DNA of 64,000 nt, from contig CAITMK010000003.1 in NCBI GenBank assembly GCA_903893485.1, forward strand, positions 9,922-73,921, in the 5' to 3' direction. Positions 1 through 21,602 of the stretch are shown one piece after another (positions within the stretch are counted from its first letter, which is position 1; the number at the start of each line of letters is the position of its first letter). This DNA is from Candidatus Magasanikiibacteriota bacterium (GTDB taxonomy: Bacteria > Patescibacteriota > Patescibacteriia > Magasanikbacterales > 2-02-FULL-50-9b). A program made the translations under genes and the position numbers. The notes beneath the pieces are model-generated. The model saw only the letters and a program-made list of their open reading frames with translations, was not told the origin of the DNA and ran no database searches.

Positions 1-3000
1 GCCACCATTATATAAATCCGTAAGCTGGCCATCTTCCGTTTTGCCCGTCATGTAGGCCGCAGGAAAAGAAAAGTTTGGTTTATCAACCTCAATGCGATAA
101 TTACCAGGGCGAGCAAAAAACTGATACCGACCATCGCGATCCGTAACATGCGATTGTACGACACGGCCCGATTCCGCATCAACGATGCGTACCAATGCCA
201 AATCAGCTGGCAACTTTGAAATCGCGTTATACGCCATGCCCCACCCTTTGCGACGTTTACGCGTAAGTAAAAATAACGGTTGTGTAAATAAAAACCGGAA
301 GTACAACGCAACCTGACTAAAATTTAATGCAGTTGATACACTCGCCGCCACAACCGCTGCTGCCGCTGGCACCACTACCGCCTGATTTGTAATTTGAACC
401 TGCGGCGTTGCAACCGCTTGCTGAACTGCCACCGCGGCTTTAGTAACCGATCGCGAGACTTGCGCCGAAACAGCCTTCACTGCCGTAACAGTTGCGGCAG
501 ATACTGGCGATGAGAATGTATCTGCAACGGCTGAAATTGCATTTGATATTGTTGTTTGTGTCGAGCTAGGAGTAGCGATGATAATCGGTGTTGAGCTCAC
601 CACATCTGTAGTGGAAGAGGTCGAAGAGGTGCCTCCGGTGGTGATAGTACCGCCACCAATTCCGACGGTTGGCGTGGTTGGATTTGTAACCACTGGTGGC
701 AAAATATCCTTTTTAACGGGTGGCGGAATGACCACGGCCTGAGTTAGTGTAATTGATCGTTGCGTTCCATCAAGAAAATCATTTGCCTGATTTAACATGC
801 GAAATTCCAATGAATAGACGCCATCTTGTGCTGGTAATGATAAATTTATATTCCAATTAGCATCTGACCCAACGGTTGTGGTGTAAGTTGTGATTCCATT
901 TTGAACAATAATAATTTTGGCGCCAATTTGCCCGGTGCCCGATGCCGCAACAGAGGTTTTTGTTACCGTAGCACCATCGCTTGGAGAATTCACAACCAGC
1001 GCAACACCCGGAGTCGCCGCAAGAACACTAAAAATATTTATATCTTGTTGTGTGTTTCCTACAATGTCGGACGCAATGGCCGTTGCCTTGTAAACACCAA
1101 CGGGCAACGCATCCGGAACTGCATACGACCAGGTTCCATCGGTTGCAACCGGCACTGCAACGTGTACAATTTCTTTACTATTCGTTTCAATTAATAATAA
1201 TAAATTTGTTTTAACATCAGCGGTACCGGTAAATACAACCGTCCCGCCAGTGACATGCGAATTATTTGTTGGCGCCTTAATGACCGGCGCAGAAGGCACT
1301 ACCGTATTTAAAGTTGTCTTTCCCACGGTAATCGCACTTTCAGTTGCCATTGCAGAGCGAACCTTGATATAAACCGTTTTTTCGCCGTCGCCTGATTGCA
1401 AAAACCATTTTTTTGTACTTGTTGCAGGTTCCCATACGCCGCCCGTAAAATCTGCAGAATTCGAAATCATCATTTGCGCCGCATTTGCGCCGTACGTTAT
1501 TGCTAACGAAACTGTTGTGGTTGAAACATATGTCGGCATTGAAATCGTTGGAGCATCCACCATTTCGATTGGTGTGCTCGACGATATCAGTGTAATCTCT
1601 TGATACGTTGGCGCAGAAAAAGTATTTGTTGGACTTTTCACTATGGCATAAATTCTTTTAACACCCAAGCTACCACTAAGCAGATAACTTATTGCTTGTT
1701 GATATGAACTTACAACCGCATTTGAAAAATCCGATGACAATGAAAAACCCATTTGTTCTGCGTTGGTCGCAACAAGCTTCAAAGTAACTGTTGTTGAGGT
1801 GGTGACGGTTGCACCATCATTAATGGTAAAGCTTTGAATTGCCGGGGTAACTGCATCAGGTCCTAAATAACTGCTAATCGATGGCGAACCACCATTTTCT
1901 GCAGATGTTGTTGCAAGCCCAAAATAAATTATTTCTTTATCAAATACTTGCGAAACGATTGTTGATGAAGCCAAGTAAATTCCAGTTGCCGCGGTAGAAA
2001 AATTAAATGCAGGTGGAGAAATTAAATTGTAATTAAAATAATTAGTTAAAGGTGTGAATCCTGTTACATCGGAAGTGACCGTGTCACTTCCTCCAGAATA
2101 AGAGGACACAGTTACCGGAACTCCCGAGACTGGCGCGCCGCCATTTCGTTCTCCTACATATACACCAACCCTAACAGATGAGGTAACCGCGCTCGCCATC
2201 GGTCCAAATAAGGTCGACGTCGGCATGATATTTGAAGCGACAAAATTATTCAGCAAGCCCGTCGCATTTGAACAGAATTGAACGCCAGTTGAAGTAGCAA
2301 CAGCATCAAATCTGGTAAGGGTATTATTTGCAGACGCACCATCGAGCGCAACACTACAACCCGCATTTGTCGATGTTGTATCTCTAATATCATTATTTGA
2401 TGAATTCAAAAAATATAAACCAGCACCATTAATAGTAAGGCCTGTTGTGTGCGAAATTGCAGGAGGATTATCAAATCCACCAACGATTGTAAGTCCTGCC
2501 CCACTCACCGCAGATGGATTATAAGTGAGTGTGCCTGCTGACGCAGTAAACGCACTTGGAACAAACGCATCTACCGCAATGCCGTGCCCAGCGCAATCTG
2601 GATCTGCGACTATCGCAGCTGCTGACGGATATAAATTATTTGGCGCCCAAACACTTAAATGAAAGCCACTGACTGAAAGCAATGCTAAATTCCAATCGTT
2701 TGTGCCGGAGCCAACTGTACTGGTGATGTCTGTGGCAGATGATGAAATTGGCTGGACATCGCAGCCGGTATTGCGGAAATAAAGAGCGCTATTTGGGGGC
2801 GATCCTATGGCACCAGAATCATTATAATCAGTACCCGCTTTTGAAAAGACAGTTTTGTTTATCAAATAAGCACTAGTCGCAGTTGATGTTGGTGCTGCAT
2901 TTGAATAGTTTGTCGTGACTCCTGAAATATATGAATTATTTACCGAATCGAGGGTGATTACATTGTGAGGAAAAATTGTATCACCTGTATTAATACTCGC

Positions 3001-4731
3001 AGAAACATTAATCAAATTAACATTAACAGCATGACCAATGTATAACGCATTCGTGCCGCCTGAAAGTGTAAAAAATAAATTTTGCAACGACAAATGGTCA
3101 ATACCATCGAAGCGCATCGGGCCAGCCTCATTTGGCGATCCAGTAACTGCAGATATCGAAGCAGATCCTGTGTATGGCCCAAAAATACCAAACATCGATG
3201 ACAGTTGCGTACTCGAGGTCATGCCTCCAAAGGTGTACATGCCAGAAGTTAAATCAATCGAATCACCATTACGAAGACCGGCGGTTGATGTTGCGATATA
3301 AAAAAGATCAAAAGCATCCACCGTGTTATAATCGATTGGATCACCATGACCAGCCCAACTGATATGAATATTTGCGCGGCGAACCCCGCTAAAGGCGCCA
3401 ATATCGTCGGTTCCGTTTACATCCAAGTAATCGCTCCATGGCGCAGGTTCCCAATCATCTGACGTTGAAATATCTTCTAATCGCATGAATGGATTTGATG
3501 TTTTATCCGTTCCATTTGGCGTAAACCCGCCAACTAAATCGCGGTATGGAATATTGAATCCATAAAACCCGTTGTAACCCTGCGTAATCGTAAGTGTTTG
3601 CGGCTGATTAAGTTGAAATGTTAATCCAGCGGTACCCGTTAAACTGCTCGACGCCATCTGCGCGGTAGGAATGAGCGGCTGCCCCTTAACTGAGGCGTAA
3701 TTATAAAATAAATTTTTTGAAATGGTGTATGATGCTGCGCCCGCGGCACCCATAATTTCTGGAGTGGCAACCGTAATAGCGGTTTCATTCCCCGTTGAAG
3801 AAGTCATGAACGTGTTATTTTCGATATCCATTGGAGCGCCCTGCTCGCTTCGAAACACAATAAAACCGTTCGTTAATGCAAATGGAGCTGAAAATACATT
3901 CCCCTTAAAAGTGATCGTAGCATTCCCAAAAATAGGATTATTTACTTGGTCCAATACGGTTCCTGTATAAAAGGTTTTATTGTTTGTAAACACAAAGGTT
4001 GCTGAATTATATCCCGTTGCCCCGTTACCATCAGTCGATCGATAATCAGTTAAATTGAAAGTATTATTATCAATGGTGAACGTACCAAGCGGTCCAGTGC
4101 CCTCAAAATTAATAAACGTTTTAAAAGAACCTGCGGGCGCACTAAAAGTATTATTGCTAATCGTTGCGTTTGTTGAAGTAGAAGCGTAAATCTGAAAATA
4201 ACCAGTGCTGCCGGTCACCAATGGCGATGTGAATGAATCTAAATTTATTGCTGATTGCGAAGCTGGGTCAAAAGTGATGTTGCTTACCGTAAAACCCGCG
4301 TTTGAACCCGCGGCAGTATTTCGATAAATTTGAAGTCTGCGCGCGTTACAATTTTGAACGCCACCCGCACCTGTTGTATTTAAATAAATTGTTGTGGATG
4401 CCGCGGTTGTGCCCAAATAAGCACCGCTACTTTCACAATCGATAACCACATCAGGCTGTGTCGCGGTAATTGTTGTTCCCGCTTCGGCCGTTGGATCGTA
4501 AGTTCCCTGCACGCGAATGGTGCCACCAACCCCAACAAAACTTGCGTCGCCTTCTGCCGCTGCAATCGTGGTGTAATCGCAACCACTTGAACACACCGTT
4601 ACCGACGCTGTTGCGTGCACCTTAAAAACTACAAAAAGTGCCCCGATAATCGCGACATATGAAAGAAAAATCGTGTACCAAACTTTTTCTTTTGGGCTTT
4701 CGACTTTACCTTTAAAAAAACCAAGATGCAT
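1..4731 (-). CDS. giant cell-surface protein, paralog 1 of 3 (partial; C-terminus runs off the window start)
   Basis: ATG at 4731 (rc of tgcat 4727-4731). N-terminus MHLGFFKGKVESPKEKVWYTIFLSYVAIIGALFVVFKVHA matches the N-termini of the two downstream paralogs. The rc of nt 1-300 encodes ...AAYMTGKTEDGQLTDL.../...RKRRKGWGMAYNAISKLPADLALVRI...DRDGRYQFFARPGNYRIEV... in the same frame as the ATG (4731 and 60 are both 0 mod 3). Only short ORFs lie on the + strand across the region. Confidence 0.8.
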   Translation of the reverse strand, partial: MHLGFFKGKVESPKEKVWYTIFLSYVAIIGALFVVFKVHATASVTVCSSGCDYTTIAAAEGDASFVGVGGTIRVQGTYDPTAEAGTTITATQPDVVIDCESSGAYLGTTAASTTIYLNTTGAGGVQNCNARRLQIYRNTAAGSNAGFTVSNITFDPASQSAINLDSFTSPLVTGSTGYFQIYASTSTNATISNNTFSAPAGSFKTFINFEGTGPLGTFTIDNNTFNLTDYRSTDGNGATGYNSATFVFTNNKTFYTGTVLDQVNNPIFGNATITFKGNVFSAPFALTNGFIVFRSEQGAPMDIENNTFMTSSTGNETAITVATPEIMGAAGAASYTISKNLFYNYASVKGQPLIPTAQMASSSLTGTAGLTFQLNQPQTLTITQGYNGFYGFNIPYRDLVGGFTPNGTDKTSNPFMRLEDISTSDDWEPAPWSDYLDVNGTDDIGAFSGVRRANIHISWAGHGDPIDYNTVDAFDLFYIATSTAGLRNGDSIDLTSGMYTFGGMTSSTQLSSMFGIFGPYTGSASISAVTGSPNEAGPMRFDGIDHLSLQNLFFTLSGGTNALYIGHAVNVNLINVSASINTGDTIFPHNVITLDSVNNSYISGVTTNYSNAAPTSTATSAYLINKTVFSKAGTDYNDSGAIGSPPNSALYFRNTGCDVQPISSSATDITSTVGSGTNDWNLALLSVSGFHLSVWAPNNLYPSAAAIVADPDCAGHGIAVDAFVPSAFTASAGTLTYNPSAVSGAGLTIVGGFDNPPAISHTTGLTINGAGLYFLNSSNNDIRDTTSTNAGCSVALDGASANNTLTRFDAVATSTGVQFCSNATGLLNNFVASNIMPTSTLFGPMASAVTSSVRVGVYVGERNGGAPVSGVPVTVSSYSGGSDTVTSDVTGFTPLTNYFNYNLISPPAFNFSTAATGIYLASSTIVSQVFDKEIIYFGLATTSAENGGSPSISSYLGPDAVTPAIQSFTINDGATVTTSTTVTLKLVATNAEQMGFSLSSDFSNAVVSSYQQAISYLLSGSLGVKRIYAIVKSPTNTFSAPTYQEITLISSSTPIEMVDAPTISMPTYVSTTTVSLAITYGANAAQMMISNSADFTGGVWEPATSTKKWFLQSGDGEKTVYIKVRSAMATESAITVGKTTLNTVVPSAPVIKAPTNNSHVTGGTVVFTGTADVKTNLLLLIETNSKEIVHVAVPVATDGTWSYAVPDALPVGVYKATAIASDIVGNTQQDINIFSVLAATPGVALVVNSPSDGATVTKTSVAASGTGQIGAKIIIVQNGITTYTTTVGSDANWNINLSLPAQDGVYSLEFRMLNQANDFLDGTQRSITLTQAVVIPPPVKKDILPPVVTNPTTPTVGIGGGTITTGGTSSTSSTTDVVSSTPIIIATPSSTQTTISNAISAVADTFSSPVSAATVTAVKAVSAQVSRSVTKAAVAVQQAVATPQVQITNQAVVVPAAAAVVAASVSTALNFSQVALYFRFLFTQPLFLLTRKRRKGWGMAYNAISKLPADLALVRIVDAESGRVVQSHVTDRDGRYQFFARPGNYRIEVDKPNFSFPAAYMTGKTEDGQLTDLYNGG

Positions 4732-4746
4732 ACATTTTGCGTATGT

Positions 4747-4785
4747 ATTATAACATTAATAAAGGTTTTATGAACCTGTTGACAA
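4747..4785 (-). promoter_or_regulatory. candidate promoter of paralog 1 (extended -10 TGTTATAAT, 15 nt upstream of the ATG)
   Basis: rc of attataaca at about 4747-4755 gives TGTTATAAT; a TTCATA -35-like hexamer lies 16 nt upstream. Confidence 0.45.
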
Positions 4786-4787
4786 CT

Positions 4788-7700
4788 CTAGGCACCTTGC
4801 ATTTGCAATGTCACATCTTTTGCAAGTGATGCGCCACCTTCTGGAGCATTTATCGTTATCGGTTCGGTTGTTACTGTTTGATAACCCGGCTTTTCTGCCA
4901 TAACATAATACTGATTTGAACCAACAAGAAATGAATAACGCCCGTCATTGCCTGTAATTTGGGTTTCCAAAAGTTTGTTATATTGTGTATCGAACACGCG
5001 AACAATTGCATTTGCAACTGCCGCACCAGAAGCGTCTTTTATAACACCCCAATCTTTTGGTTTTTTTGTTATTGCCAGGCGGCGAAACACAAAATAACTT
5101 ACAACCTGCGCAGCCAAAAACGCCCCCACAAAAATGGTTGGCGAAACTGCAAATGAGACGGCGGTAAGTACAACGCCGCCTGCGCCTAATATATTTACCA
5201 ACCGGCTCTTATTTTTTGCGTGTAAAATTTCACTCACATCCTTATGTTCCCCGCCAGGATCGAGTGGTAAATTATATGAGATCTGTGCGGCAGCGGTAAG
5301 CGGTACGGTACCACCAGTATACAAATCAGCAAGTTGCCCATCTTCTGTTTTTCCAGCCATGTATGCAGCAGGAAAAGAGAAATTTGGTTTATCAACCTCA
5401 ATACGATAATTCCCCGGGCGTGCAAAAAACTGATACCGACCATCTCGATCTGTTACGTGTGATTGCACCACGCGACCTGAATCTGCATTTATAATGCGCA
5501 CCAACGCTAAGTCTGCAGGCAATTTTGAAATTGCATTATAAGCCATACCCCACCCTTTGCGACGTTTACGCGTGAGCAAAAATAATGGTTGGGTAAACAA
5601 AAAGCGGAAATACAAAGCGATCTGCCCAAGGTTAAGTGAAGTTGAAACACCCGCCGCAACAACTGCTGCGGCTGCTGGGACCACAACCGCCTGGTTGGCA
5701 ATTTGAACCTCTGGAGCCTGAGCAATTCGTTGTGCCGCAGCAGCTGTTTTGGTAACACGAGCTGAAACTTTTTTCACAGCATCTACAGCAGCTTGAATCG
5801 GCTCTGCCGCAGCTATAAACTGCGCAGCTGTGGTGGTAACTACTGCCGGCTCCGTGCTTGTAGTTACAACAACTTGCTCCGCGCTTGTCACAATTTGGCT
5901 TGTTGATGTTGGCGTTTCAATTACTAATGTCGCACCTCCTGGAGCGGGCGCTGGAGCAGCAGTACCGCCTGGCGCGGTGACTGTGGTGGTATCAATTACT
6001 TTTTTATCTGGCGGAGGTGGAACAACTGGCAAATCCACCACAACGCTTCTTTGTACACTATCGAGAAGATTATTACCTGCGTCCACCATTCGATATTCAA
6101 ATGCGTACGTATCACTCACCGCTGCTAAAGAAATTGGGATGCTCCATTTACCATTTGTCCCAATCACACTGGTGAATGTTGCAGTGCCCTGCACCACTAC
6201 AATGTGTGCGCCCGCTTTACCAGAGCCATTTGCGACAAATATATTTTTAGAAATGGTTGTACCATCCGAAGGAAACGAAACCATGAGCGGAATCGCGGGC
6301 TCTGAAGCAAGAATTGTAAAATTACTGAAATCTTCACTCTGATTTCCTGCAATATCGGTTGATCGCGCCAAAATCTGATACGAACCAACAGGTAGCGCAT
6401 CTGGCACCGCATAACTCCACGCTCCCTGAGCACTGATTGGGAATGTAACATGCACAACCTCTTTTTGATTTGATGAAAGAGTTAATACAAACGGTTCGTG
6501 TGGATCCGCAGAACCAGAAATAGTAATCGCGCCATTGGTTAATTTTTCATTATTTTTTGGAGTAGTGATTACTGGAGTCGCCGGCGCAGTTGCGTCTAAA
6601 ATTAATGTTGCCACCACCGTTGAACTTTCTGTTCCCGTTCCAGAACGGACCTTAATATAAATTGTTTTTTGTCCATCAGGTGCTGGCAATTTCCAAACCT
6701 TATTTGGCGCTAAAGGCTCCCACTCGCTCCCCACAAAATTTGCAGAATTACTAAGCATCATTTGAGATGCCGTATCATCATAGCCAATTGTTAACAAAAC
6801 CTCTGTTGATGTTGCATATGCCGGCGCACTAATTGTTGGTGCAGTTACTGGCCGCTGCGGCGTGCTTTCTGCAACCAGTGTTATATTTTGCACTGATACC
6901 GCACTCTCGCCGCCATCACTGCCGCGGACTTTTGCATAAATGTGTTTCAGGCCAAGCGCTGAATCCAGCAAAAATGATGAGGTTTGTGAATATGCTTGCC
7001 ATACAGTATTTGCAAATGAATCGTTCAAAGAAAATACCATTTGCGTCGCAGTGTTTGCCACAATACCGAGTGTTACGGTGGTAGATGCTGTTGTAGTAGC
7101 GCCGCTATTAATTCCAAAGCTACTAATGATTGGAGTAACTGTTTGTGGCGGCCCGCTACCATTACAATTAGTACATGGCGGCGGTGGCGTAACCGGCGGA
7201 GTGGTGGAGGTCATGTATACAGTAAACGTTTGGTTTTGTGAAACCAATTCACTGCGTGTAGATGTTGCATATAAACCACCTATTGCCGCAACTGAAATTG
7301 TGTATTGCCCCGCAGCAAAGAGCCCGGAGTATGGCGTATATCCACTTCCATCCGTTGTCATTAGGGTTGAAGACGTTGCGCCGATATCTGCAATTGTTAC
7401 TGTAGCACCAGCAATTGGGGTGCTGTAAGTATCTAAAATTCGTGCGCGCGTGTTATACATGAGCGCAGGAGAAGTGGCCACAGAAGAATACGATGCCGGC
7501 ACACTGCTGAGCGTTGGAATAAAAAATTCATTATAGTTGCCCGGGTTTGCATTTGAACAAATATCGTATTCTAAACTTGCGCTTGCAACGTAATTATAAA
7601 ATAAATTTGCATTTCCACTATTTGATCCAGATGATCCCGCAAATCCAACACCGCAAGTGTTCCCTGTTGAAGTTATATTAGTAAAGGTATTTCCACCTGA

Positions 7701-9992
7701 ATCATTCATTCCTATACCAGCACCATTTACAACTTTTGTTCTGGTAAGTGCGGCTGGACTATCAAAACCTGAAATAATTGTTGCCCCAGCAGACGCAATG
7801 GCGGCACTGTTATATGTAAAATCTTGGCCAGAGAAAGTGAAGGCGTTGGAGATAAATTTATCAACTACAACACCAGCATCGCTGCACAACGCTTCAACAG
7901 TGCCTGCATCTGACGCAACATGATTAGGCATCCACATTGTTAATCGCGCATTGCCCTGCGTTGGCACTCTAATAAGTGCCAAATGCCAACTTTCTGGCAA
8001 TACCAAATGTCCGTCATTAAGGATTGCTTCTGTTACGCTCGTCGCAGTCTCAAACGCTTTAGCATCGCAACCAGAATTATTACCCCCTCCTAACGCGAGC
8101 GTTGTCGAGGTATGCCATCCAATAGATGCACCATCAGAATAATTATGACCACCATATTGGTAAGCGGTATTAGACAGCATATACGACGGAAGAGTGCTCG
8201 AGGTAAAGCCAGCTGTGGCAATGTCGGTAAATGTCGAATTCGTTACAGCATTTAAACCAAGGCCGTCCGGTGCAGATCCTGTTGTTTTTACGACTTGAAT
8301 ATCAGAGAACGCGGCATTCTGCGCATTATTAATTGTCACAGTTGGCCCCCATAATCCACCGCATGTACGATCATCAAACTTAATATGTGAAATACTAAGT
8401 GAATCAATTCCATTGAACTGGGTATCGTGCGACAAATCTAAACACGAAATATTTGTTTCGGGGCCGCCGCCAATTCCAGAGCCAGAACCAACAATGGTAA
8501 GCCCTGATGCCATACCAGTGCTAGACGAAAAAATGCCAGCTGTGTATTGACCAGCCGCAATGTGCACGGTATCACCATTTGCTAAACCACCATTTGTTGC
8601 CAAAATACTGTCGGTATTTGTCGCGTCAACTGTGTTGTAGTCAACAGTTCCTGCGGCATCGATATACACGTTAGATCGACGCACTCCGCTGTACGCACCA
8701 ATATCCTCTGTCCCATCTACATCAAAATAATCGCTCCATGGGGCAGGCTCCATATCATCGGAAGTAGACACATTTTCCAAACGTAGATGTGGGTTATCCA
8801 AACGGTCGTACGAATCCAAAGTTACATAAGCCGGGGCATAATAACCCATCGGCTCTCCAAATCCATACATCCCATTTGCGTGATTAGTAATGATATAACT
8901 TCCACCACTCTCATTTCTAAAATTAAGAGCCTGAACACCGCCGTCACCGACAGATGCAACCTGTTTATTATAAAATAAATTATATTCTATATCTGCAGAT
9001 AAGCTACCGCCATATGCAGTAGAAAACCCAACCATACTACCCATTGCAACAGTGCTCACAACCGTATTGTGCTTGAATTCAACATGATCATGTTCACCTC
9101 CTAATCCACCAAAAAAAGCTATATATGACAATCCCGTTGTCTGTGTGTATCCGAAATTAAAATAATTTCCATCAACTATAAAATCACCGCCACCAAAAGC
9201 GAGCTCATCAAACCCTACAGGGGCCGTCCCGACAAATTCAACCGTATTTGAAGAAAAATTTAAACTACCCCCACTAAAGTTCCACCAAATATTATTAAAT
9301 CCGTCAATTGTGAAGTGATTATTCGTGATAGTTCCCTGTGGCATGGCTCCACGAGTGACAAGAACGACCGAATTAAAATTCATTTCACCAGTCATGGTAT
9401 TTCCGTCGATAATAGGTGCGACTGACCAAGCAATATCAATAGTAAAATGCCCTGTATTATTCTGAATCAAAGGTCCGCTAAAATATTGCAGGGTGAGCAA
9501 AGACCACGAAGATGGGTCAAACGTATTTCCAGAAATTGTGGCCCCAGTGGTTATGTCTCCATCCAGTACAACATGAGCATTCACCAATGTATTTCGAACA
9601 TTACAATTATTTAGCGAATCGCCAGAAATCATGCTTATCGTTGTTGTTGCTGTTGGATCCAACACACCAATGTACGCTCCACTATTTTGACAATCAATTG
9701 CAGTGTTTGTGTATGATGGCGCTATTACTGCCGATGGGTACGATGGTTCCCCTGTTGGATCGTAGGTTGCTTGTACAGAAACTGTACCTCCACCAGATAG
9801 GGTGGCGTCTGTTACTGCGGTGGTGATGTTGGTGTAGTCACAACCACTAGCACACACGGTAATAGTTGGAGTTGCGTGAACACGGAAAACTACAAATAGC
9901 GCCCCGATAATCGCGACGTATAATATAAAAGTGGCAAACCAGATTTTTTCTCCCTGGCCTTCCCCATGACGTTGTAATAAACCAAAATGCAT
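4788..9992 (-). CDS. giant cell-surface protein, paralog 2 (1734 aa): N-terminal signal anchor, parallel beta-helix-like central region, Ig-like domains, C-terminal polytopic membrane module with two CarboxypepD_reg-like domains
   Basis: Uninterrupted 5.2-kb ORF with ATG start. N-terminal hydrophobic segment IWFATFILYVAIIGALFVVF follows a short basic N-terminus. Recurrent N/G/T-rich beta-helix-type repeats, PPPP linkers, and two units of [TM]-(KRRKGWG/KKPKDWG)-[~85 aa with DRDGRYQF...GNYRIEV / GNDGRYSF...YYVM]. Confidence 0.9.
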   Translation of the reverse strand: MHFGLLQRHGEGQGEKIWFATFILYVAIIGALFVVFRVHATPTITVCASGCDYTNITTAVTDATLSGGGTVSVQATYDPTGEPSYPSAVIAPSYTNTAIDCQNSGAYIGVLDPTATTTISMISGDSLNNCNVRNTLVNAHVVLDGDITTGATISGNTFDPSSWSLLTLQYFSGPLIQNNTGHFTIDIAWSVAPIIDGNTMTGEMNFNSVVLVTRGAMPQGTITNNHFTIDGFNNIWWNFSGGSLNFSSNTVEFVGTAPVGFDELAFGGGDFIVDGNYFNFGYTQTTGLSYIAFFGGLGGEHDHVEFKHNTVVSTVAMGSMVGFSTAYGGSLSADIEYNLFYNKQVASVGDGGVQALNFRNESGGSYIITNHANGMYGFGEPMGYYAPAYVTLDSYDRLDNPHLRLENVSTSDDMEPAPWSDYFDVDGTEDIGAYSGVRRSNVYIDAAGTVDYNTVDATNTDSILATNGGLANGDTVHIAAGQYTAGIFSSSTGMASGLTIVGSGSGIGGGPETNISCLDLSHDTQFNGIDSLSISHIKFDDRTCGGLWGPTVTINNAQNAAFSDIQVVKTTGSAPDGLGLNAVTNSTFTDIATAGFTSSTLPSYMLSNTAYQYGGHNYSDGASIGWHTSTTLALGGGNNSGCDAKAFETATSVTEAILNDGHLVLPESWHLALIRVPTQGNARLTMWMPNHVASDAGTVEALCSDAGVVVDKFISNAFTFSGQDFTYNSAAIASAGATIISGFDSPAALTRTKVVNGAGIGMNDSGGNTFTNITSTGNTCGVGFAGSSGSNSGNANLFYNYVASASLEYDICSNANPGNYNEFFIPTLSSVPASYSSVATSPALMYNTRARILDTYSTPIAGATVTIADIGATSSTLMTTDGSGYTPYSGLFAAGQYTISVAAIGGLYATSTRSELVSQNQTFTVYMTSTTPPVTPPPPCTNCNGSGPPQTVTPIISSFGINSGATTTASTTVTLGIVANTATQMVFSLNDSFANTVWQAYSQTSSFLLDSALGLKHIYAKVRGSDGGESAVSVQNITLVAESTPQRPVTAPTISAPAYATSTEVLLTIGYDDTASQMMLSNSANFVGSEWEPLAPNKVWKLPAPDGQKTIYIKVRSGTGTESSTVVATLILDATAPATPVITTPKNNEKLTNGAITISGSADPHEPFVLTLSSNQKEVVHVTFPISAQGAWSYAVPDALPVGSYQILARSTDIAGNQSEDFSNFTILASEPAIPLMVSFPSDGTTISKNIFVANGSGKAGAHIVVVQGTATFTSVIGTNGKWSIPISLAAVSDTYAFEYRMVDAGNNLLDSVQRSVVVDLPVVPPPPDKKVIDTTTVTAPGGTAAPAPAPGGATLVIETPTSTSQIVTSAEQVVVTTSTEPAVVTTTAAQFIAAAEPIQAAVDAVKKVSARVTKTAAAAQRIAQAPEVQIANQAVVVPAAAAVVAAGVSTSLNLGQIALYFRFLFTQPLFLLTRKRRKGWGMAYNAISKLPADLALVRIINADSGRVVQSHVTDRDGRYQFFARPGNYRIEVDKPNFSFPAAYMAGKTEDGQLADLYTGGTVPLTAAAQISYNLPLDPGGEHKDVSEILHAKNKSRLVNILGAGGVVLTAVSFAVSPTIFVGAFLAAQVVSYFVFRRLAITKKPKDWGVIKDASGAAVANAIVRVFDTQYNKLLETQITGNDGRYSFLVGSNQYYVMAEKPGYQTVTTEPITINAPEGGASLAKDVTLQMQGA

Positions 9993-10009
9993 ACGTGGGT
10001 GGCGTATGC

Positions 10010-10045
10010 ATTATAGCACTTAAAAAGATTTTTCGGATCTGTTAG
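10010..10045 (-). promoter_or_regulatory. candidate promoter of paralog 2 (extended -10 TGCTATAAT)
   Basis: rc of attatagca at about 10010-10018, 17 nt from the ATG at 9992. Confidence 0.45.
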
Positions 10046-10050
10046 TAATT

Positions 10051-13000
10051 CTAGACCGCTTGCATTTGCAATGTCACATCTTTTGCAAGCGCCGCGCTGC
10101 CTTCTGGAGCATTTATTATGATCGGCTCCGTTGTTAAATTCTGAAAACCTGCTTTTTCTACCATTATGTAATATTGATTTTTACCAACCAAGAATGAATA
10201 CCTACCTTGGTCATCAGTAATCTGTGTTTCCAAAAGTTTATTATATTGTGTATCAAACACGCGAACAATTGCTTGAGCTACTGGTTTGCCATCACTGCCA
10301 CGAACAACACCCCAATCATGCGGCTTTGGTGGAAGTGCGAGGCGGCGGAATACAAAGTAGCTCACCACTTGAGCTGCCAAAAATGCACCCACAAAAATTG
10401 TCGGAGAAACTGCAAATGAGACGGCGGTAAGAACAACGCCGCCTGCGCCAAGTATATTTACTAAACGATTTTTTGCTTTTGTACGCAAAATTTCTCGCGC
10501 AGGTTTTGCATCGCCACCAGGGGCTAATGGTAAGTTGTATGAAATTTGGCCAGCAGCGGCAAGTGGTACGGTGCCACCGGTATATAAATCGGTGAGCGCG
10601 CCATCTTCTGTTTTCCCTTGCATGTACGCAGGTGGAAATGAATAATTTGGTTTTGTTACCTCAAGACGATAATTCCCTGGACGCGCAAAAAACTGATACC
10701 GACCATCTCGATCTGTTACGTGTGATTGCACCACGCGACCTGAATCTGCATTTATAATGCGCACCAACGCTAAGTCTGCAGGCAATTTTGAAATTGCATT
10801 ATAAGCCATGCCCCACCCTTTGCGGCGTTTACGCGTGAGCAAAAATAATGGTTGGGTAAACAAAAAGCGGAAATACAAAGCGATCTGCCCAAAATTTAAC
10901 GCGGTCGAGACGCCTGCCACCACAACTGCAGCTGCAGCCGGAACTACAACCGCTTGGTTGGCGATTTGGACTTGTGGAGCCGCCACAATTTGTGCCGCCG
11001 CAACACGTATTTTACGAACAGATTTAACTACGCTCACTGACGCAGCAGTAACGGTTTCTGAAATTTTTTGAGCAGTAACTGTTTGTGCAACGTTTTCCGG
11101 AATAGTGACGGTGCTGGTGGTGCTCGTGGTGTTTGCGGGTTCCTGTACGACGAGCGGAACAGTTGTTGTCGTTATTATCTCAGTGGATGTTGCCATCGGC
11201 GCAATAACTCCCCCAGCAACTGGAGCAGGCGCTGCAATTGGTACCAAACCTGGTGTATCTTTTTTAACTGGTGGAGGTGGAACCGCTGGTAAATCTACGA
11301 TGATAGTGCGCTGAACACTGTCCAACAAATTGCTCGAAGCGTCTACCATGCGGTATTCAAATGCATAGGTATCGCTCACCGCTGCCAAAGAAATTGGAAC
11401 ACTCCATTTACCATTTGTGTCAACAATGCTCGTGAATGTGGCGCCGCCTTGCACAATCACAATGTGTGACTGTGGTTTACCATGGCCACTTGCCGTAAAA
11501 GAATTTTTGGTAATATGCACGTTGTCTTGCGGTGAATCAACCGAAAGCGGAATCAGTGGTTCTGCAGCCAAAATAGTAAAACTTGCCGTATCAGAACTCA
11601 TATTTCCCGCAATATCCGTTGCCGACGCAACTATCTGATACGATCCCACTGGTAAATCGTCTGGAACGGCATAGCTCCAACCCCCTTGTGGGCTCACTGG
11701 CAATGTCACATGAACTTTTTCTGCCCCACCTGAAGTTACTATCAAAACAAACAGTTCGTGCGGATCTGCAGTGCCAGAAATAGTTATGGTGCCAGTGGTC
11801 AGCTTTTCATTATTTTGTGGATTTGCAATAACAGGAGTTATCGGCGCGGTTGCATCCAAAATCACTTTTGCGACTACTACAGAACTTTCTATGCCTGTTC
11901 CCGAGCGAACCTTTAAATAGATTGATTTTTGGCCGTCGGGCGTTGGCAATGTCCAAACTTTAGTTGGTAACAAAGTCTCCCACACGCCTCCAACAAAATC
12001 TGATGAATTACTAAGCATCATTTGGGAGGCGGTATCGTCGTAACCAATTGCAAGTAATACACTTGTCGACGTTGTATAAGCGGGTGCGCTAATCGTTGGT
12101 GCTGTTACTGGCCGTTGCGGTGTACTTTCGGCAACTAGTGTAATATTTTGCACCGATACCGCGCTTTCGCCACCATCACTACCGCGAACTTTTGCATAAA
12201 TGTGTTTTAAACCAAGCGCTGAGTCCAATATAAATGAGGATGTTTGTGAATATGCCTGCCATACCGTATTTGTAAATGAATTATTTAAAGAAAACACCAT
12301 CTGAGAAGCACCGTTCGCCGCAATACCAAGTGTAACCGTGGTAGACGCGGTCGTAGTTGCGCCACCATTAATACCAAAACTGCTGATGATTGGAGTAACT
12401 ACTTGTGGTGGCCCACCGCCAGTACAAGTAGTGCATGGTGGTGTAATTATCACGGGCGCCGACGAAGACATGTATACCGTAAAAAGCTGGTTTTGAGAAA
12501 TCAAATCAGCGCTCGTGGATGAGGTATACAATCCATTAATTGGTGCAGCAGAAACCACGAATGGACCGCTTGAACCACCGTCGATAAGCAAAAAATCATC
12601 TGGTCGGTATTGCTGTGACATGAAGTAATCGGCGTTGGAAACATACCCGTCTCCATCAGTTACATAATCATGTGATGTAATGCCTCCACCAATATTACTG
12701 TCGTGAATTGTGACCGTAGCACCCGCTACCGGCGCTCCGTACATATCTAAAATTAAGGCTCGCGGTTTATACAACAACATGATAGATCCTGTATTTTTCA
12801 TGTATACCGACCCTCGTGTAATTGTAGGTCCAAACAAAAAATTATAGGTTTGACTTGGTCCTAAACTATCATCAGAGCAAAGATCATATTCCAAACTCGA
12901 GGTGGCAACAAAATTATATAAATTATTTTGCGCATATGCAGCTCCAGAAGCTCCTTCAAACAAAACGCCACAGGTGTTACCCGTTGAAGTGACATTGGTA

Positions 13001-15324
13001 AATGTATTATTCCCCGAATCAGTGATGTCCAAGCCGGCGCCAAAAAAGTTTTTAGTTACGTGATGAGTAATTTGCGGCATCCACAGCCCAAAGCCACTTG
13101 CATAACGAATACCTTGGGCTTGAAGCATGTCAAAATTATAAGTAAAGCTACCACCAGATACCGTAAAAGCATTGGAAACAAACTTATCAACGGTAATTGA
13201 ATATCCGCCGCCAATGTTTGAGCAATCCGTTTCAATCGCTGCTCCACTTGAGGCGATATTATTTGGAACCCACATGGTAAGACGTGCTGGAGAGGAAAAC
13301 CCGTGAATCACCACCGCCGCGACATTCCAATTGTTTGTTGCGTCACCAACGAGACTCGTAATATCAAGATCTCCACCACCCTCATCACTCGTCTTTACAT
13401 CGCAACTACCATTCGTCATGACAAGCGTCGATGATACGGTACCACCGACAACCGGCCCATCCGTATAATTGGATCCACCAAAAAAGATCGGGCTGCTATT
13501 TATTGAGTACGTAGAGGCTGGCTGTGTGCTCGAGGTAAATCCTGAAATATCTAAATCCGTAAATGTCGAACCTGTGACGCGTTGCAAACTCAGCCCGTTG
13601 GTACTTGAACCTGTACCTTGCGCCACTTTTACATCATTCATCGTCACGTTATTAGCATCAGTAATTTTAATTGCCGCTGGACTTTGCGAACAGCCATCAT
13701 CAAAGGCAAGGTGTGAAAATGTTAAATCATTCAACCCAACAAAGCGTGCAAAACATCCAATTTTTGAAACGGGGCCTCCGTTAATACCAGATCCAGCGCC
13801 GACAATGGTAAGTCCGCCATAAAAATATGAACTTGTTGCCACTTCTGACACCTCATATGCCCCCGGAGCGAGATGAATAGTATCGCCCCACTTAAGACCG
13901 CTGTCCGTAGCAAGGATTCCCAAAGTACTTGTTGCATCAACCGTATTATAATCAACTGTACCAGACGCATCGATATAAATATCAGTCCGATGAGAATTAT
14001 GATAAGCCCCAATACCACTCCCATCTCCGCCATCTAAATAGTAACTCCAAGGTGCCGGATACATATCATCTGCGGTTGACAGATTTTCTCTGCGGAAATG
14101 TGGATCTTCCGTAAGATCATGGGAGCTAACAGGAATTGAAGCGGTTCCGTTGTTTGATATTATGTGTGAAAAACCATGGGCGCCATTAAAACCTTCTCCA
14201 GCTGAAAATGTACCTTCACCAAGCTCAGCTTCAAACGCAATTGCGTTTATATTGGAATCTGTACCAAGAGGAACTGGCGTTAAATTATCAAACAGATTCG
14301 ATCGAAGCGTTGCGGTCGTTCCCGCGGTAGTATTAACAAAACGAACCAAACTCCCCGATGACAACGGCGCAACAACGGTATTATGTGTAAACTGATAATC
14401 ATTTGTCACCCCCGTACAATTCCACCCAAATTGTAAATGTTCGTATGGTGTCGCCACATCATAGGCAAAAGAAAAATAATTGTAACTCACGTTAAAAGTT
14501 CCGCCACAAAAACTCATTTGTGGATTATTAATTGATTGTGTTCCAGTAAACGTAACCGTATTTCGTTCAAAATCTAAATCGCCGTTATTGTAGCTCCACC
14601 AATTTCCATCAAAATTTGTAATCGTAAACGTATTATTTGTCATTGTCGCATTCGTTGGCGCCACTAGCCCTGAAGCACCAAATAACGTCGAAATAATTGA
14701 CGAAAAATTATTTGATCCCACTAACGAGTTTCCGTCAAGAAGTGGATTTACCGCACTAGCGCCTGAATTAGAGCTCAAACTTATCGATACTTTCCCGGTA
14801 TTATTTTGAAAAACAGGATTAACCATTTCAGCAAGTGAAACCGATGACCATGCCGCAGCGTCAAACGTATTTCCAGTTATGGCAATCCCCGTAACACCAG
14901 TGCCCAGTGTTTGTATATTTACGTGCCGCGCATTGCAATTAGTTATCGAATTACTTCCAATCAAATTGAAAGTCGTGGTTGCAGTTCCATCGGTCACCCC
15001 AAGATACGCGCCACTATTTTGACAATCAATTATTGTGCTTGTATATGATGGTGTAATCACGGCTGCTGGGTATGAGGGCTCACCTGTCGGATCATAGGTT
15101 GCTTGAACGGTTACAGTACCACCGCTAGAAAGCGTGGCATCAGTCACTGCGCTTGTAATATTGGTGTAATCACAACCACTCGCACATACCGTAATCACTG
15201 GCGTTGCATGTACTTTAAAAACTACAAAAAGTGCCCCGATTATCGCGACATACGAAAGAAAAATTGTGTACCAAACTTTTTCTTTTGAGTTCTCGGCTGT
15301 GCGCTGTAAAAAACCAAAATGCAT
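10051..15324 (-). CDS. giant cell-surface protein, paralog 3 (about 1757 aa from the ATG at 15324; the ORF track begins at a TTG at 15333)
   Basis: Same architecture as 4788..9992. C-terminal ~850 aa are about 90% identical to paralog 2 and the first ~110 aa are also conserved. The MHFGFLQ start aligns with MHFGLLQ and MHLGFF of the paralogs. Confidence 0.9.
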   Translation of the reverse strand: MHFGFLQRTAENSKEKVWYTIFLSYVAIIGALFVVFKVHATPVITVCASGCDYTNITSAVTDATLSSGGTVTVQATYDPTGEPSYPAAVITPSYTSTIIDCQNSGAYLGVTDGTATTTFNLIGSNSITNCNARHVNIQTLGTGVTGIAITGNTFDAAAWSSVSLAEMVNPVFQNNTGKVSISLSSNSGASAVNPLLDGNSLVGSNNFSSIISTLFGASGLVAPTNATMTNNTFTITNFDGNWWSYNNGDLDFERNTVTFTGTQSINNPQMSFCGGTFNVSYNYFSFAYDVATPYEHLQFGWNCTGVTNDYQFTHNTVVAPLSSGSLVRFVNTTAGTTATLRSNLFDNLTPVPLGTDSNINAIAFEAELGEGTFSAGEGFNGAHGFSHIISNNGTASIPVSSHDLTEDPHFRRENLSTADDMYPAPWSYYLDGGDGSGIGAYHNSHRTDIYIDASGTVDYNTVDATSTLGILATDSGLKWGDTIHLAPGAYEVSEVATSSYFYGGLTIVGAGSGINGGPVSKIGCFARFVGLNDLTFSHLAFDDGCSQSPAAIKITDANNVTMNDVKVAQGTGSSTNGLSLQRVTGSTFTDLDISGFTSSTQPASTYSINSSPIFFGGSNYTDGPVVGGTVSSTLVMTNGSCDVKTSDEGGGDLDITSLVGDATNNWNVAAVVIHGFSSPARLTMWVPNNIASSGAAIETDCSNIGGGYSITVDKFVSNAFTVSGGSFTYNFDMLQAQGIRYASGFGLWMPQITHHVTKNFFGAGLDITDSGNNTFTNVTSTGNTCGVLFEGASGAAYAQNNLYNFVATSSLEYDLCSDDSLGPSQTYNFLFGPTITRGSVYMKNTGSIMLLYKPRALILDMYGAPVAGATVTIHDSNIGGGITSHDYVTDGDGYVSNADYFMSQQYRPDDFLLIDGGSSGPFVVSAAPINGLYTSSTSADLISQNQLFTVYMSSSAPVIITPPCTTCTGGGPPQVVTPIISSFGINGGATTTASTTVTLGIAANGASQMVFSLNNSFTNTVWQAYSQTSSFILDSALGLKHIYAKVRGSDGGESAVSVQNITLVAESTPQRPVTAPTISAPAYTTSTSVLLAIGYDDTASQMMLSNSSDFVGGVWETLLPTKVWTLPTPDGQKSIYLKVRSGTGIESSVVVAKVILDATAPITPVIANPQNNEKLTTGTITISGTADPHELFVLIVTSGGAEKVHVTLPVSPQGGWSYAVPDDLPVGSYQIVASATDIAGNMSSDTASFTILAAEPLIPLSVDSPQDNVHITKNSFTASGHGKPQSHIVIVQGGATFTSIVDTNGKWSVPISLAAVSDTYAFEYRMVDASSNLLDSVQRTIIVDLPAVPPPPVKKDTPGLVPIAAPAPVAGGVIAPMATSTEIITTTTVPLVVQEPANTTSTTSTVTIPENVAQTVTAQKISETVTAASVSVVKSVRKIRVAAAQIVAAPQVQIANQAVVVPAAAAVVVAGVSTALNFGQIALYFRFLFTQPLFLLTRKRRKGWGMAYNAISKLPADLALVRIINADSGRVVQSHVTDRDGRYQFFARPGNYRLEVTKPNYSFPPAYMQGKTEDGALTDLYTGGTVPLAAAGQISYNLPLAPGGDAKPAREILRTKAKNRLVNILGAGGVVLTAVSFAVSPTIFVGAFLAAQVVSYFVFRRLALPPKPHDWGVVRGSDGKPVAQAIVRVFDTQYNKLLETQITDDQGRYSFLVGKNQYYIMVEKAGFQNLTTEPIIINAPEGSAALAKDVTLQMQAV

Positions 15325-15342
15325 ACGCGACAAAGCAATCTT

Positions 15343-15380
15343 ATTATAGCCTTTTTTCGATCTTTCTGCAGCGTGTGTAT
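15343..15380 (-). promoter_or_regulatory. candidate promoter of paralog 3 (-10 TATAAT)
   Basis: rc of attata at about 15343-15348, 18 nt upstream of the ATG at 15324. Confidence 0.4.
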
Positions 15381-15390
15381 AACCTTATTT

Positions 15391-15430
15391 AAAAAAAATC
15401 AGCGGCACGTTGGAAAACGTACCGCCTTTT
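15391..15430 (-). terminator. intrinsic terminator downstream of the PNP gene
   Basis: Hairpin cagcggcacgttggaaaacgtaccgcc flanked by A8 on + (T8 on the transcribed strand), directly after the PNP stop at 15455. Confidence 0.55.
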
Positions 15431-15454
15431 GACTCCGCGTAGCTGCAAAAGTTG

Positions 15455-16339
15455 CTACAGCTGCGTGATCACGCGATGCAAAACCTCGGTGAGCCGCGCA
15501 GCACCGAGCGGGCCCGCATCCATCACTTCTTCGTGGCTATTGCTTCCCGCCCCCGAGTAGTTGGTGATGAACGAGAGCGCGCTGACGCTCGGCCGCTGTT
15601 CAACGTCCGAAATGCCGAGCGCCATGTGCTGAATCGCCATCACTTCAGGCACCACGGACATGCCAACGACATGCGCACCAAGTTTGGCCAGCAATTCAGC
15701 CTCGGCAGCCGTTTCGTACTGCGGGCCGCGAGCAAACGCCAGCGTGAGTCCTTGGCGCGGCGCGATGAGCCAGGGAAAAAATTCGACGTCGCCGCTAATG
15801 CCGCTCGAAACGAAGTTGAACGCCTTGCCGTGATACGCGCCCTCCATGGACGTAAACCGCAACCGCGGACCAAGCCCCGACTCGTGCAGCCACCGCCCCA
15901 TGAGCGGATTGTCGTCCCGCTCCATGAAAAGCGAAATGTGGTTGCCGACAAGCACCACCTTGCCCGGCTCGTACAGGCGCGAAAGCGACCCGACCGCCGA
16001 AGTCAAGATGAAGTTCTTCACGCCGATCCGCACCAGCGCGCGCAGCGAAGCGACGATCGTATGAATGTTCACGCCTTCGTAGCAGTGCACGCGGCCGGAC
16101 AGAACGAGAACGCTTTTTTCGCCGACGTGGCCGAAATACGCAACGCCCTCGTGCCCTTCTGCTTTCGGCACCTCGAGTCGAAGTGACCGATAACTCGCGG
16201 TCGACGCGTTCTGGACCATGCCCGTCACGCCCGAAAGGCCTGACCCAAGCACAATCACCACGTCCGGCACGTTACCGCCCAAAAAGCGCCAGAAACCATC
16301 CGTCACATGCTGAACTCTTTCAAGACTAAACTTTGGCAT
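15455..16339 (-). CDS. purine nucleoside phosphorylase / MTA phosphorylase family (PNP-I)
   Basis: 294 aa with VIVLGSGLSG, GMSVVPEV, FITNYSGAG and HEEV motifs typical of trimeric PNP/MTAP. GC about 63%, well above neighbours. Confidence 0.8.
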   Translation of the reverse strand: MPKFSLERVQHVTDGFWRFLGGNVPDVVIVLGSGLSGVTGMVQNASTASYRSLRLEVPKAEGHEGVAYFGHVGEKSVLVLSGRVHCYEGVNIHTIVASLRALVRIGVKNFILTSAVGSLSRLYEPGKVVLVGNHISLFMERDDNPLMGRWLHESGLGPRLRFTSMEGAYHGKAFNFVSSGISGDVEFFPWLIAPRQGLTLAFARGPQYETAAEAELLAKLGAHVVGMSVVPEVMAIQHMALGISDVEQRPSVSALSFITNYSGAGSNSHEEVMDAGPLGAARLTEVLHRVITQL

Positions 16340-16433
16340 CCTACCCTCCAGATTGCTTTAAGCGAATCATTCCGCGCAATCAAAAACAGAGTACTCGCGC
16401 ACCCTGTTTTTGTCAATCCCTTTGATTTTAAAA

Positions 16434-16745
16434 TTATGCCAAAAGCGCTTTAAGCTGATCGATGGTTTGTACGCCCGATGCGGTTTTTACTGCCACGCCA
16501 CCCTTGAAAACGATGAGCGTTGGAATGCTCATGATGTTATATTTTGCTGCGGTGTCTGGATTTTCGTCCACGTTCATTTTGCCAATTTTAACTGGCTTGC
16601 CTTCCATTTCGTGGGCAAAATTTTCTACAACCGGACCCATCATGCGGCAAGGGCCACACCATGGTGCCCAAAAATCAACCAAAACAGGTTCTGCGCTCTG
16701 CAATACGTCTGCGTCAAATTTTGCATCAGTGAATTCGAGTTCCAT
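16434..16745 (-). CDS. trxA: thioredoxin
   Basis: 103 aa with a WCGPC active site and ~105 aa thioredoxin fold length. Confidence 0.9.
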   Translation of the reverse strand: MELEFTDAKFDADVLQSAEPVLVDFWAPWCGPCRMMGPVVENFAHEMEGKPVKIGKMNVDENPDTAAKYNIMSIPTLIVFKGGVAVKTASGVQTIDQLKALLA

Positions 16746-16765
16746 AGAAACTAAAATTAATTTTA

Positions 16766-19966: not shown

Positions 19967-20040
19967 GGAACTCACCGCCTCGCGAGCGCAAAATGCGCTT
20001 GCCACAGCCTGCCACAAAATGGGCAAACAGTCAATACGAC

Positions 20041-20068: not shown

Positions 20069-20089
20069 ACCTATACTTAACTTTATAAT

Positions 20090-20644
20090 ATGACACCAAG
20101 CATTATTTTTCTGATCGTCGTTATTGTAATCGTTTTGTGGGTTATCATGGCCTACAACGGTTTAGTCACGGGCCGCAATCGCGTTGCCGAAAGTTGGTCA
20201 GACATCGACGTACAATTAAAACGTCGCTACGATTTGATTCCAAATTTGGTTGAAACTGTAAAAGGCTACGCCGCACACGAACAAGGCACGTTGGAAAAAG
20301 TAATTGCCGCACGCAACGCCGCAATGAATGCGGGCAGCGACATGCAAACAAAATTGGCCGCAGAAAATAATTTGTCGAGTACGTTGAAATCCATTTTTGC
20401 ATTGTCAGAAAGTTACCCAGACTTAAAAGCAAACACCAATTTTTTGCGCTTACAAGATGAACTTGCTGACACCGAAAATAAAATTCAAGCTGCTCGCCGT
20501 TTTTACAATGGCAACACACGTGAATTCAATACCTCACTCCAAACATTTCCAACCAGCATAATCGCCGGTTTGTTTCATTTCACTCCACGCGATTTTTTTG
20601 AAGCAGCCGCAGGCGAACGCGAAAACGTGCAGGTGAAATTCTAG
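20090..20644 (+). CDS. lemA: LemA family protein
   Basis: 184 aa, N-terminal TM, characteristic LemA sequence (NGLV..RN...SWSDIDVQLKRR.DLIPNLV). Confidence 0.85.
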   Translation: MTPSIIFLIVVIVIVLWVIMAYNGLVTGRNRVAESWSDIDVQLKRRYDLIPNLVETVKGYAAHEQGTLEKVIAARNAAMNAGSDMQTKLAAENNLSSTLKSIFALSESYPDLKANTNFLRLQDELADTENKIQAARRFYNGNTREFNTSLQTFPTSIIAGLFHFTPRDFFEAAAGERENVQVKF

Positions 20645-20645
20645 T

Positions 20646-21533: not shown

Positions 21534-21602
21534 AAAAACACAGCCACATCCAGGGTTCTGGAGGGCTGCGTGCACATGGTGCTTTTTTCGCGGTTCGCGC
21601 GA

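Follow-up and report, generated by a model that had tools for sequence, protein, structure and literature searches.

Three tandem mosaic genes for candidate adhesin-like double-beta-helix surface proteins in a Candidatus Magasanikiibacteriota genome

The right-handed parallel beta-helix is the fold of polysaccharide-binding and polysaccharide-cleaving proteins, of the PfbA adhesin and of phage tailspikes. PfbA of Streptococcus pneumoniae (PDB 3zpp/4mr0) has one beta-helix and is sortase-anchored via LPXTG, the soluble PL6 lyases AlyGC and BcAlyPL6 have two beta-helix domains, and the chlamydial Pmp proteins form a multi-copy beta-helical surface family in which a diversified passenger is joined to a conserved anchoring part. 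In the giant adhesins SiiE, MpIBP and the LapA type, as in GhpA, tandem immunoglobulin (Ig)-like extenders hold a ligand-binding region off the cell; SiiE, MpIBP and the LapA type are exported by type I secretion and carry RTX repeats at the C-terminus and, at the N-terminus, a module for retention in the outer membrane. To our knowledge, almost nothing is known of partner recognition and attachment in most Patescibacteria beyond the cultivated Saccharibacteria. Here we describe three tandem genes (A, B and C) in a stretch of 64,000 nucleotides (nt), hereafter the window, from a Candidatus Magasanikiibacteriota bacterium (contig CAITMK010000003.1, positions 9,922 to 73,921). From their sequences and predicted structures we read the products, with somewhat more belief than doubt, as a three-member repertoire of stalked, membrane-anchored, glycan-binding, adhesin-like surface fibres.

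The three genes are co-oriented on the minus strand, measure ~5.2-5.3 kb each and fill window positions 1-15333, as a preliminary description of this DNA had stated, and all three reading frames are intact (Table 1). That description also allowed for a longer array beyond the window edge, which cuts gene C. However, the products of A, B and full-length C (P0002, P0001 and P0004) are all encoded by one 80,482-bp contig, and the public protein collection holds three family members from this contig and no fourth, so that three genes are probably the full extent of the array. The spacers measure 58 nt between A and B and 56 nt between B and C. Gene A most likely starts at ATG 15324 rather than TTG 15333, because the former lines up with MHFGF, the start that B, C and the orthologues have in common. 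The flanking genes are of the housekeeping type (PNP, IF-2, LemA, M48 peptidase, DHH, ClpP, VanW and DnaE).

Protein A was modelled with AlphaFold2 in two parts, residues 1-960 and 961-1757, with predicted local distance difference test scores of 79.8 and 70.0. A predicted signal peptide ends in an AxA-type signal-peptidase site that is kept in homologues, 5-7 residues ahead of the VTVCxSGCD start of the head. The head of A consists of two beta-helices (residues ~43-400 and ~447-865) and a highly conserved connector (residues 403-446, NPHLRxENxSTxDDxxPAPW...), and its predicted structure has the stacked three-strand coils and Asn ladder of a beta-helix fold; Asn-ladder, Gly and Cys positions are invariant across 13 homologues. 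Foldseek matches the head to the two-beta-helix lyase AlyGC and also to PfbA, GH87, GH110, RbmB lyase and phage capsule depolymerases, in agreement with the beta-helix-like region first proposed. Cysteines number 14, 12 and 8 in A, B and C, even in each case, and all lie within the head region (residues 47-967). Matches to the four-domain stalk come from Ig extenders, both in giant adhesins (MpIBP, SiiE and the LapA type) and in the GhpA grappling hook (Foldseek, 4p99 at E 7.8e-14 and 2yn5 at E 1.3e-11; hidden Markov model match to SiiE 2yn3 at 1.5e-8).

Behind a linker, the anchor of A runs in the order two hydrophobic helices, RKRRKGWG, first CarboxypepD_reg domain, transmembrane (TM) hairpin and second CarboxypepD_reg domain; the C-terminal model has three helices (1419-1496), a beta-sandwich (1505-1600), the TM hairpin (1609-1663) and a second beta-sandwich. 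Pfam identifies at least two CarboxypepD_reg domains at the C-terminus together with Big_13 and SdrD_B-like domains, so that both the Ig-like and the carboxypeptidase-regulatory domains expected at the outset are present. CarboxypepD_reg (PF13620) scores 56.1 bits in A and 74.3 bits in B against a gathering cutoff of 32.3, and is present in P0004, the domains of C lying mostly beyond the window. NCBIfam has no family covering A, B or C (Ca_tandemer, at 29-35 bits, falls below its cutoff of 50). The architecture is not a named family, as had been supposed, there being no Pfam or NCBIfam model for it, and no description of the protein family or of the anchor was found in the literature.

Protein identity differs sharply by region, and the mosaic is real as opposed to uniform divergence. 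Identity in the leader (residues 1-45) is 69% for A-B, 76% for A-C and 56% for B-C, and over residues 46-115 it is 86% for A-B and ~50% to C. It falls to 39% for A-B and 25-32% to C in beta-helix 1, and to 46% and 30-32% in beta-helix 2. The Ig stalk is 78% identical between A and B and 46-47% to C, the linker ~33% in all comparisons, and the anchor 83% for A-B and 79-82% to C. The picture drawn in the preliminary description was qualitatively right but overstated in degree. High identity over the first ~110 residues holds for A and B at 46-115, but not for C, nor across the leader (56-76%). The centre is strongly diverged (25-46%), but it spans ~850-900 residues (two beta-helices and sandwich) rather than ~700. 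Near-complete identity over the last ~850 residues does not hold, since the last ~780 comprise the stalk, linker and anchor with the values just given.

Neighbour-joining trees (200 bootstraps) were built region by region with the relatives P0003, from a Lac Pavin metagenome-assembled genome (MAG), and P0005 and P0006, from Logan assemblies, and with P0024 and P0032 as outgroups. In both beta-helices C groups with P0006 (100%), and in beta-helix 1 A and B group with P0003 and P0005 (100%). The stalk tree supports (A,B) at 100%, (C,P0006) at 100% and (A,B,C,P0006) at 98.5%, and the anchor tree joins (A,B,C) at 99.5%. C and P0006 are 56-59% identical in the head and 63% in the anchor, where C is 79-82% identical to A and B. 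The heads of A and B resemble each other no more than they resemble genes from other genomes. Judged by sequence, the heads are old lineages found in other genomes too, and not the outcome of divergence among these copies after a recent duplication, as the first account of a diversified exposed region had implied. Synonymous divergence (dS) in the heads is saturated at 2 or more, so dN/dS is no test of positive selection there.

Within the anchor, a 208-nt tract (residues ~1479-1547) is 98% identical between A and B, with exact matches of 67 and 125 nt, a dS of 0.06 against 0.5-1.4 in its flanks, and two stretches of identical synonymous codons, 40 and 21 long (permutation P<0.0002 and 0.0012). 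This tract is a recent A-B gene conversion. Outside it synonymous sites are near saturation nearly everywhere, and therefore most homogenisation is old. Concerted evolution of the scaffold, claimed at first for its whole length, thus stands for the anchor clade (99.5%) and for this one tract, but most of it is old and the stalk of C goes with P0006. The similarity of the A and C leaders (dS 0.55) is only suggestive as a sign of conversion. Residues 505-560 of A (window ~13644-13811) form a patch 80% identical to P0005 inside an otherwise 40-50% identical head, which suggests recombination between genomes. Two scenarios fit these data: an ancestral multi-gene array with differential loss and anchor conversion, or duplication in the lineage and, later, lateral replacement of heads. 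Neither works without recombination, the breakpoints of which would lie near residues ~50-100, ~950 and ~1420.

Copy number was compared with two related genomes. The nearest relatives carry the labels Candidatus Magasanikbacteria or Magasanikiibacteriota, and IF-2 of the window is 77-80% identical to theirs and 77-83% to that of the two genomes. The P0006 genome has a single copy between IF-2/PGM/thioredoxin and LeuRS, and the Lac Pavin MAG has a single copy between IF-2 and LeuRS. The window shares their upstream synteny (VanW, ClpP, DHH and IF-2), yet has three copies; with shared synteny but copy numbers of 1, 1 and 3, expansion or retention is lineage-specific. A GTDB genome scan and a JGI metagenome scan returned one locus each, the second a 33% partial match. 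In the Lac Pavin MAG (L001), a 190-amino-acid open reading frame (ORF) at 15327-15899 lies between the single-copy giant gene and LeuRS, and it has no counterpart in L002.

On the adhesin reading, each protein would be exported by Sec and, after removal of the signal peptide, would expose a pair of parallel beta-helices as its N-terminal tip. The tip would be carried on the beta-sandwich, the four Ig-like extenders and the T/V/A/P-rich linker, and the C-terminal module would fix the protein in the cytoplasmic membrane. The heads being old and of very different types, a cell would display three binding specificities; the probable ligands are glycans, borne by a host or partner cell or by a substrate. 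Transcription of each gene would start at its own short-leader promoter. Head, stalk, and anchor with leader have separate histories, making the genes recombinational mosaics in which the anchors were homogenised among A, B and C by gene conversion, latest between A and B, and the heads behave as exchangeable cassettes, present in other genomes and on other stalks. The variable adhesin or host-recognition family first proposed fits the fold and the layout, although the role could instead be an enzymatic or a coat one.

Several observations weigh against this account. None of the Pfam beta-helix models (Beta_helix PF13229, NosD PF05048 and PbH1) matches A, B or C at E<=0.01, and precomputed PF05048 and PF13229 matches are confined to P0009 and P0011, which are distant relatives. 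Hydropathy, charge and AlphaFold2 leave the topology of the anchor ambiguous. Basic clusters border its first hydrophobic stretch on both sides, and this stretch is modelled as two helices with a confidence below 50; therefore the CarboxypepD_reg domains may be either cytoplasmic or external. The RKRRK cluster and the basic residues beside the hairpin would put both of them in the cytoplasm. With regard to gene conversion, the silent-site run test finds no significant A-C or B-C tract and the synonymous sites of the anchor are saturated between C and A/B, so that the (A,B,C) clade may reflect an old duplication in the lineage with later replacement of heads, and not conversion that is still going on.

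The main rival, which is unlikely but carries real weight, is that the heads are surface-anchored lyases or glycosidases with three substrate specificities, attacking polysaccharide of the host envelope or the environment. Degradation of polysaccharide by a stalk-held enzyme would serve nutrient acquisition or entry. The predicted fold alone would fit a binding and a depolymerase role alike, and the matches to GH87, GH110, RbmB lyase and phage capsule depolymerases favour the enzyme, as does the dependence of candidate phyla radiation (CPR) bacteria on hosts for building blocks (PMC10633639). However, sequence identity to the matched enzymes is 9-17%, there is no CAZy-type Pfam match, and in comparisons of 6 or 13 homologues no acidic or basic residue of the helix rungs is invariant. 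In sequence columns, R133 and D155 stay constant only within the group of 6 close members, and no invariant catalytic-type K/R/E/H occurs in the rungs across 13 homologues. The lack of invariant catalytic-type residues, together with the equally good match to PfbA, leans towards binding.

A further possibility, ranked weaker and rather improbable, is that A-C are abundant S-layer-like structural subunits, which a Thr-rich linker would join to a C-terminal TM segment in the manner of archaeal S-layer glycoproteins; the paralogues would then be alternative coat variants. Surface layers have been reported on CPR cells. The layout (signal peptide, large beta-rich ectodomain, T-rich linker and C-terminal TM), -10 boxes that are strong consensus matches and a weak match by Foldseek to chain 8qox_B of Sulfolobus SlaA/SlaB are consistent with a coat. 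On the other hand, heads of this type are very rare, with about 8 proteins in billions, copy number varies among related genomes (1, 1 and 3), neither Pfam nor NCBIfam gives a match to SLH or any other lattice-forming domain, and the stalk resembles adhesin extenders.

It is very improbable that A-C are plain old tandem duplicates whose mosaic arose from domain-wise constraint only, without recombination or concerted evolution. Omega is <1 in all regions (0.05-0.15 in the anchor and 0.2-0.3 in the heads) and synonymous sites are largely saturated, both points in its favour. However, this explanation is already contradicted by three well-supported, mutually incompatible topologies along the gene, by a C whose anchor is closest to A/B (79-82% versus 63% for P0006) while its head is closest to P0006, and by the A-B tract with its dS of 0.06. 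The weakest alternative, a repeat collapsed or falsely expanded during metagenome assembly, is raised by the metagenome-assembled source of the contig, repeats being a known hazard, but it is contradicted by the data and may be set aside, since the copies are only 72-83% identical in DNA in their best 180-300-nt stretches, share no exact match longer than 125 nt and have uninterrupted reading frames, and since L005, an independent contig of another ENA assembly, crosses the A-B junction and matches window 7699-17099 at 100% identity; collapse, the artefact that the preliminary description had considered, is thereby excluded.

A TATAAT box stands 15-19 nt upstream of the ATG in 5 of 5 genes, namely A, B, C and the single-copy orthologues of two genomes, and none of the five has a Shine-Dalgarno motif. 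The box takes the extended TGn form in B, C and L002, and the sequence upstream of A resembles that of the orthologue in L001. The separate TATAAT promoters proposed at first are thus supported at the level of motif and conservation. The hairpin with T8 downstream of the PNP gene putatively separates A from transcription upstream, and the perfect hairpin at the start of B might mask the start codon or act as an attenuator of read-through from A. A weaker 5-bp version of the latter is seen at C and none at A. Across the window, Shine-Dalgarno motifs are rare (2-3 of 29 gene starts), and a TAnAAT-like box lies merely 6-26 nt ahead of the ATG in many of the 29 genes. This near-absence, together with -10-like boxes close to the starts, suggests that leaderless or very-short-leader mRNAs are widespread and that short-leader transcription is apparently the norm in this genome.

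None of the marks of a contingency (phase- or antigen-variable) locus, such as a repeat, an invertible promoter or silent cassettes, was found. TRF and repeat scans gave no relevant or switching repeats, only T6-T7 runs occur in codons 4-7, and no recombinase or silent partial gene copies occur in window 1-16 kb. The homopolymers just past the start are T7 in C (~4709-4722, codons 4-7) and T6 in A (~15305-15315), the run being interrupted in B; they are too short for a slipped-strand switch.

The anchor belongs to a very large set of proteins. A phmmer search with residues 1446-1757 of A, counted in clusters at 50% identity, gave 4094 clusters at E<1e-3 and 813 at E<1e-30, and in all 150 of the matches listed the module is full-length and C-terminal, in host proteins of 346-4040 amino acids. 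In a word-indexed search the anchor on its own brought up no more than 7 short proteins, the family becoming visible by exhaustive search. Identity to family proteins (e.g. P0023-P0047) is 37-60% over ~305 residues, and this ~305-residue anchor has the motif YxRFLFTQPxxLLxRRKRKxWG, two transthyretin-like sandwiches and an intervening TM hairpin. The few anchor proteins with a named source are labelled Patescibacteria, one of them Binatia, and bear generic domain-based names. Among 29 sampled anchor proteins the ectodomains include FN3, Big_13, FG-GAP, NHL, Cu-binding and G-rich helices, among others, and several family members have the same Ig stalk. The double-beta-helix head on this scaffold is rare (about 8 proteins among billions), and P0007 has a signal peptide and such a head on an FN3 stalk without this anchor. 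With this head on another stalk and the anchor under other heads, head, stalk and anchor are independent modules. P0025, a member of the anchor family whose head is of another kind, is present in one copy at its locus, and tandem arrays are therefore no general trait of the scaffold family. Downstream of the P0025 gene (L007; GCA_023246755.1, JAHFHU010000002.1), a phage-type integrase gene and a pair of genes for PemK-like toxins lie at positions 20089-22001, which may mark the surroundings of a mobile element.

A bolder and doubtful proposal is that the anchor is an undescribed, Patescibacteria-wide display device that docks cytoplasmic sandwiches to a genome-specific partner, with the locus acting as a host-range cassette system. 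Both sandwiches would lie in the cytoplasm by the positive-inside rule, and double-beta-helix heads would be swapped by recombination between genomes and scaffolds. Docking to a partner would explain the likeness of the three anchors at this locus.

Elsewhere in the window, a 359-amino-acid ORF with a TTG start (18947-20026, minus strand) lies between IF-2 and LemA in a region of local GC 0.53 and has no Pfam match. Two adjacent plus-strand genes (32198-33883 and 34026-35264) encode lipobox-bearing, Cys-rich proteins of CxDGNxCTxDxC repeats that match Pfam Dicty_CTDC at E 1e-42 and 2e-11. They sit in a GC island (55-58% versus a background of ~45%), which suggests horizontal acquisition or a chimeric join.

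Table 1. Coordinates (window positions) of the array genes, their encoded domains and associated sequence elements.
Feature	Position	Strand	Remarks
Gene A	10051..15324	-	stop included; coding span without stop 15324-10054; 1757 aa (P0002); ORF and translation
Gene B	4788..9992	-	stop included; coding span without stop 9992-4791; 1734 aa (P0001)
Gene C, first 1577 codons	1..4731	-	3' end outside window; full product P0004, 1757 aa
A signal peptide (predicted), aa 1-40	15205..15324	-	predicted helix 13-38; V-H-A then T
A variable head, aa 46-900	12625..15189	-	two beta-helices and connector
A beta-sandwich after head, aa ~868-955	12460..12723	-	AlphaFold2 model
A stalk, four Ig-like domains, aa 976-1345	11290..12399	-	Big_13 match above gathering cutoff
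A linker, T/V/A/P-rich, aa 1346-1445	10990..11289	-	low model confidence, disordered
A C-terminal anchor module, aa 1446-1757	10054..10989	-	Pfam and AlphaFold2
B variable double-beta-helix head	7338..9857	-	45% identical to A head
B Ig stalk	6045..7139	-	78% identical to A stalk
B anchor module	4797..5714	-	84% identical to A anchor
C variable head	2107..4596	-	32% identical to A head; 56-59% to P0006
C Ig stalk	751..1851	-	47% identical to A stalk
C anchor, first 135 aa	1..405	-	89% identical to A; remainder outside window
Gene-conversion tract, A side	10685..10892	-	exact matches, dS, run test
Gene-conversion tract, B side	5422..5629	-	exact matches, dS, run test
TATAAT -10 box of A	15343..15348	-	18 nt before ATG; no Shine-Dalgarno
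TGnTATAAT extended -10 box of B	10010..10015	-	17 nt before ATG
TGnTATAAT extended -10 box of C	4747..4752	-	15 nt before ATG; TTCATA at 16-nt spacing
Intrinsic-terminator-like hairpin and T8	15401..15426	-	3' of upstream PNP gene
10-bp perfect hairpin (AATGCATACG...CGTATGCATT)	9986..10012	-	encloses start codon of B; flagged terminator-like

The locus offers a concrete set of candidate recognition proteins in which a single scaffold carries three very different heads. Its sequences are direct evidence for recombination of head, stalk and anchor independently of one another, with copy numbers of 1, 1 and 3 at a conserved locus, and it points to a membrane-anchor module of >4000 clusters (50% identity) that has no family name. 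Should the heads prove to bind glycans of a host, the array would determine host range; should they prove to be enzymes, it would amount to a set of depolymerases tethered to the surface, comparable to phage tailspikes.

Compared with PfbA, A-C have two beta-helices instead of one, an Ig stalk and, in place of LPXTG, a polytopic TM/CarboxypepD_reg anchor. The sortase motif [LN]Px[TSA][GAN] occurs nowhere in A, B or C, and ~260 residues follow the first hydrophobic segment. The stalk has tandem Ig-like extenders like those of the giant RTX adhesins, but A-C have a Sec-type leader, an N-terminal head with a C-terminal anchor, and four Ig domains only; no RTX nonapeptides (GGxGxD) occur in A, B or C, whose C-terminus is a CarboxypepD_reg domain. 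The PL6 lyases share the two beta-helix domains with the heads, to which they are 10-14% identical, but are soluble, and the sequence columns of the A-C family show no conserved catalytic Lys/Arg or Ca-site residues. The likeness to Pmp lies in the multi-copy layout of diversified and conserved parts; however, the Pmp proteins are autotransporters with an outer-membrane beta-barrel, whereas the anchor of A-C has alpha-helical TM segments and beta-sandwich domains, and Pfam detects no autotransporter domain in A, B or C, the C-terminal model having TM helices and sandwiches. Closest of all in the anchor, and in many cases also in the Ig stalk, are unnamed Patescibacteria proteins with a stalk and a TM/CarboxypepD_reg anchor, which unlike A-C mostly carry other heads (FN3, FG-GAP, NHL and G-rich helices) and which NCBI labels 'fibronectin type III domain-containing protein' or 'carboxypeptidase-like regulatory domain-containing protein'. 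As a modular, variable-head family of surface adhesins or depolymerases A-C follow a familiar theme, carried here on an anchor that is undescribed and very widespread.

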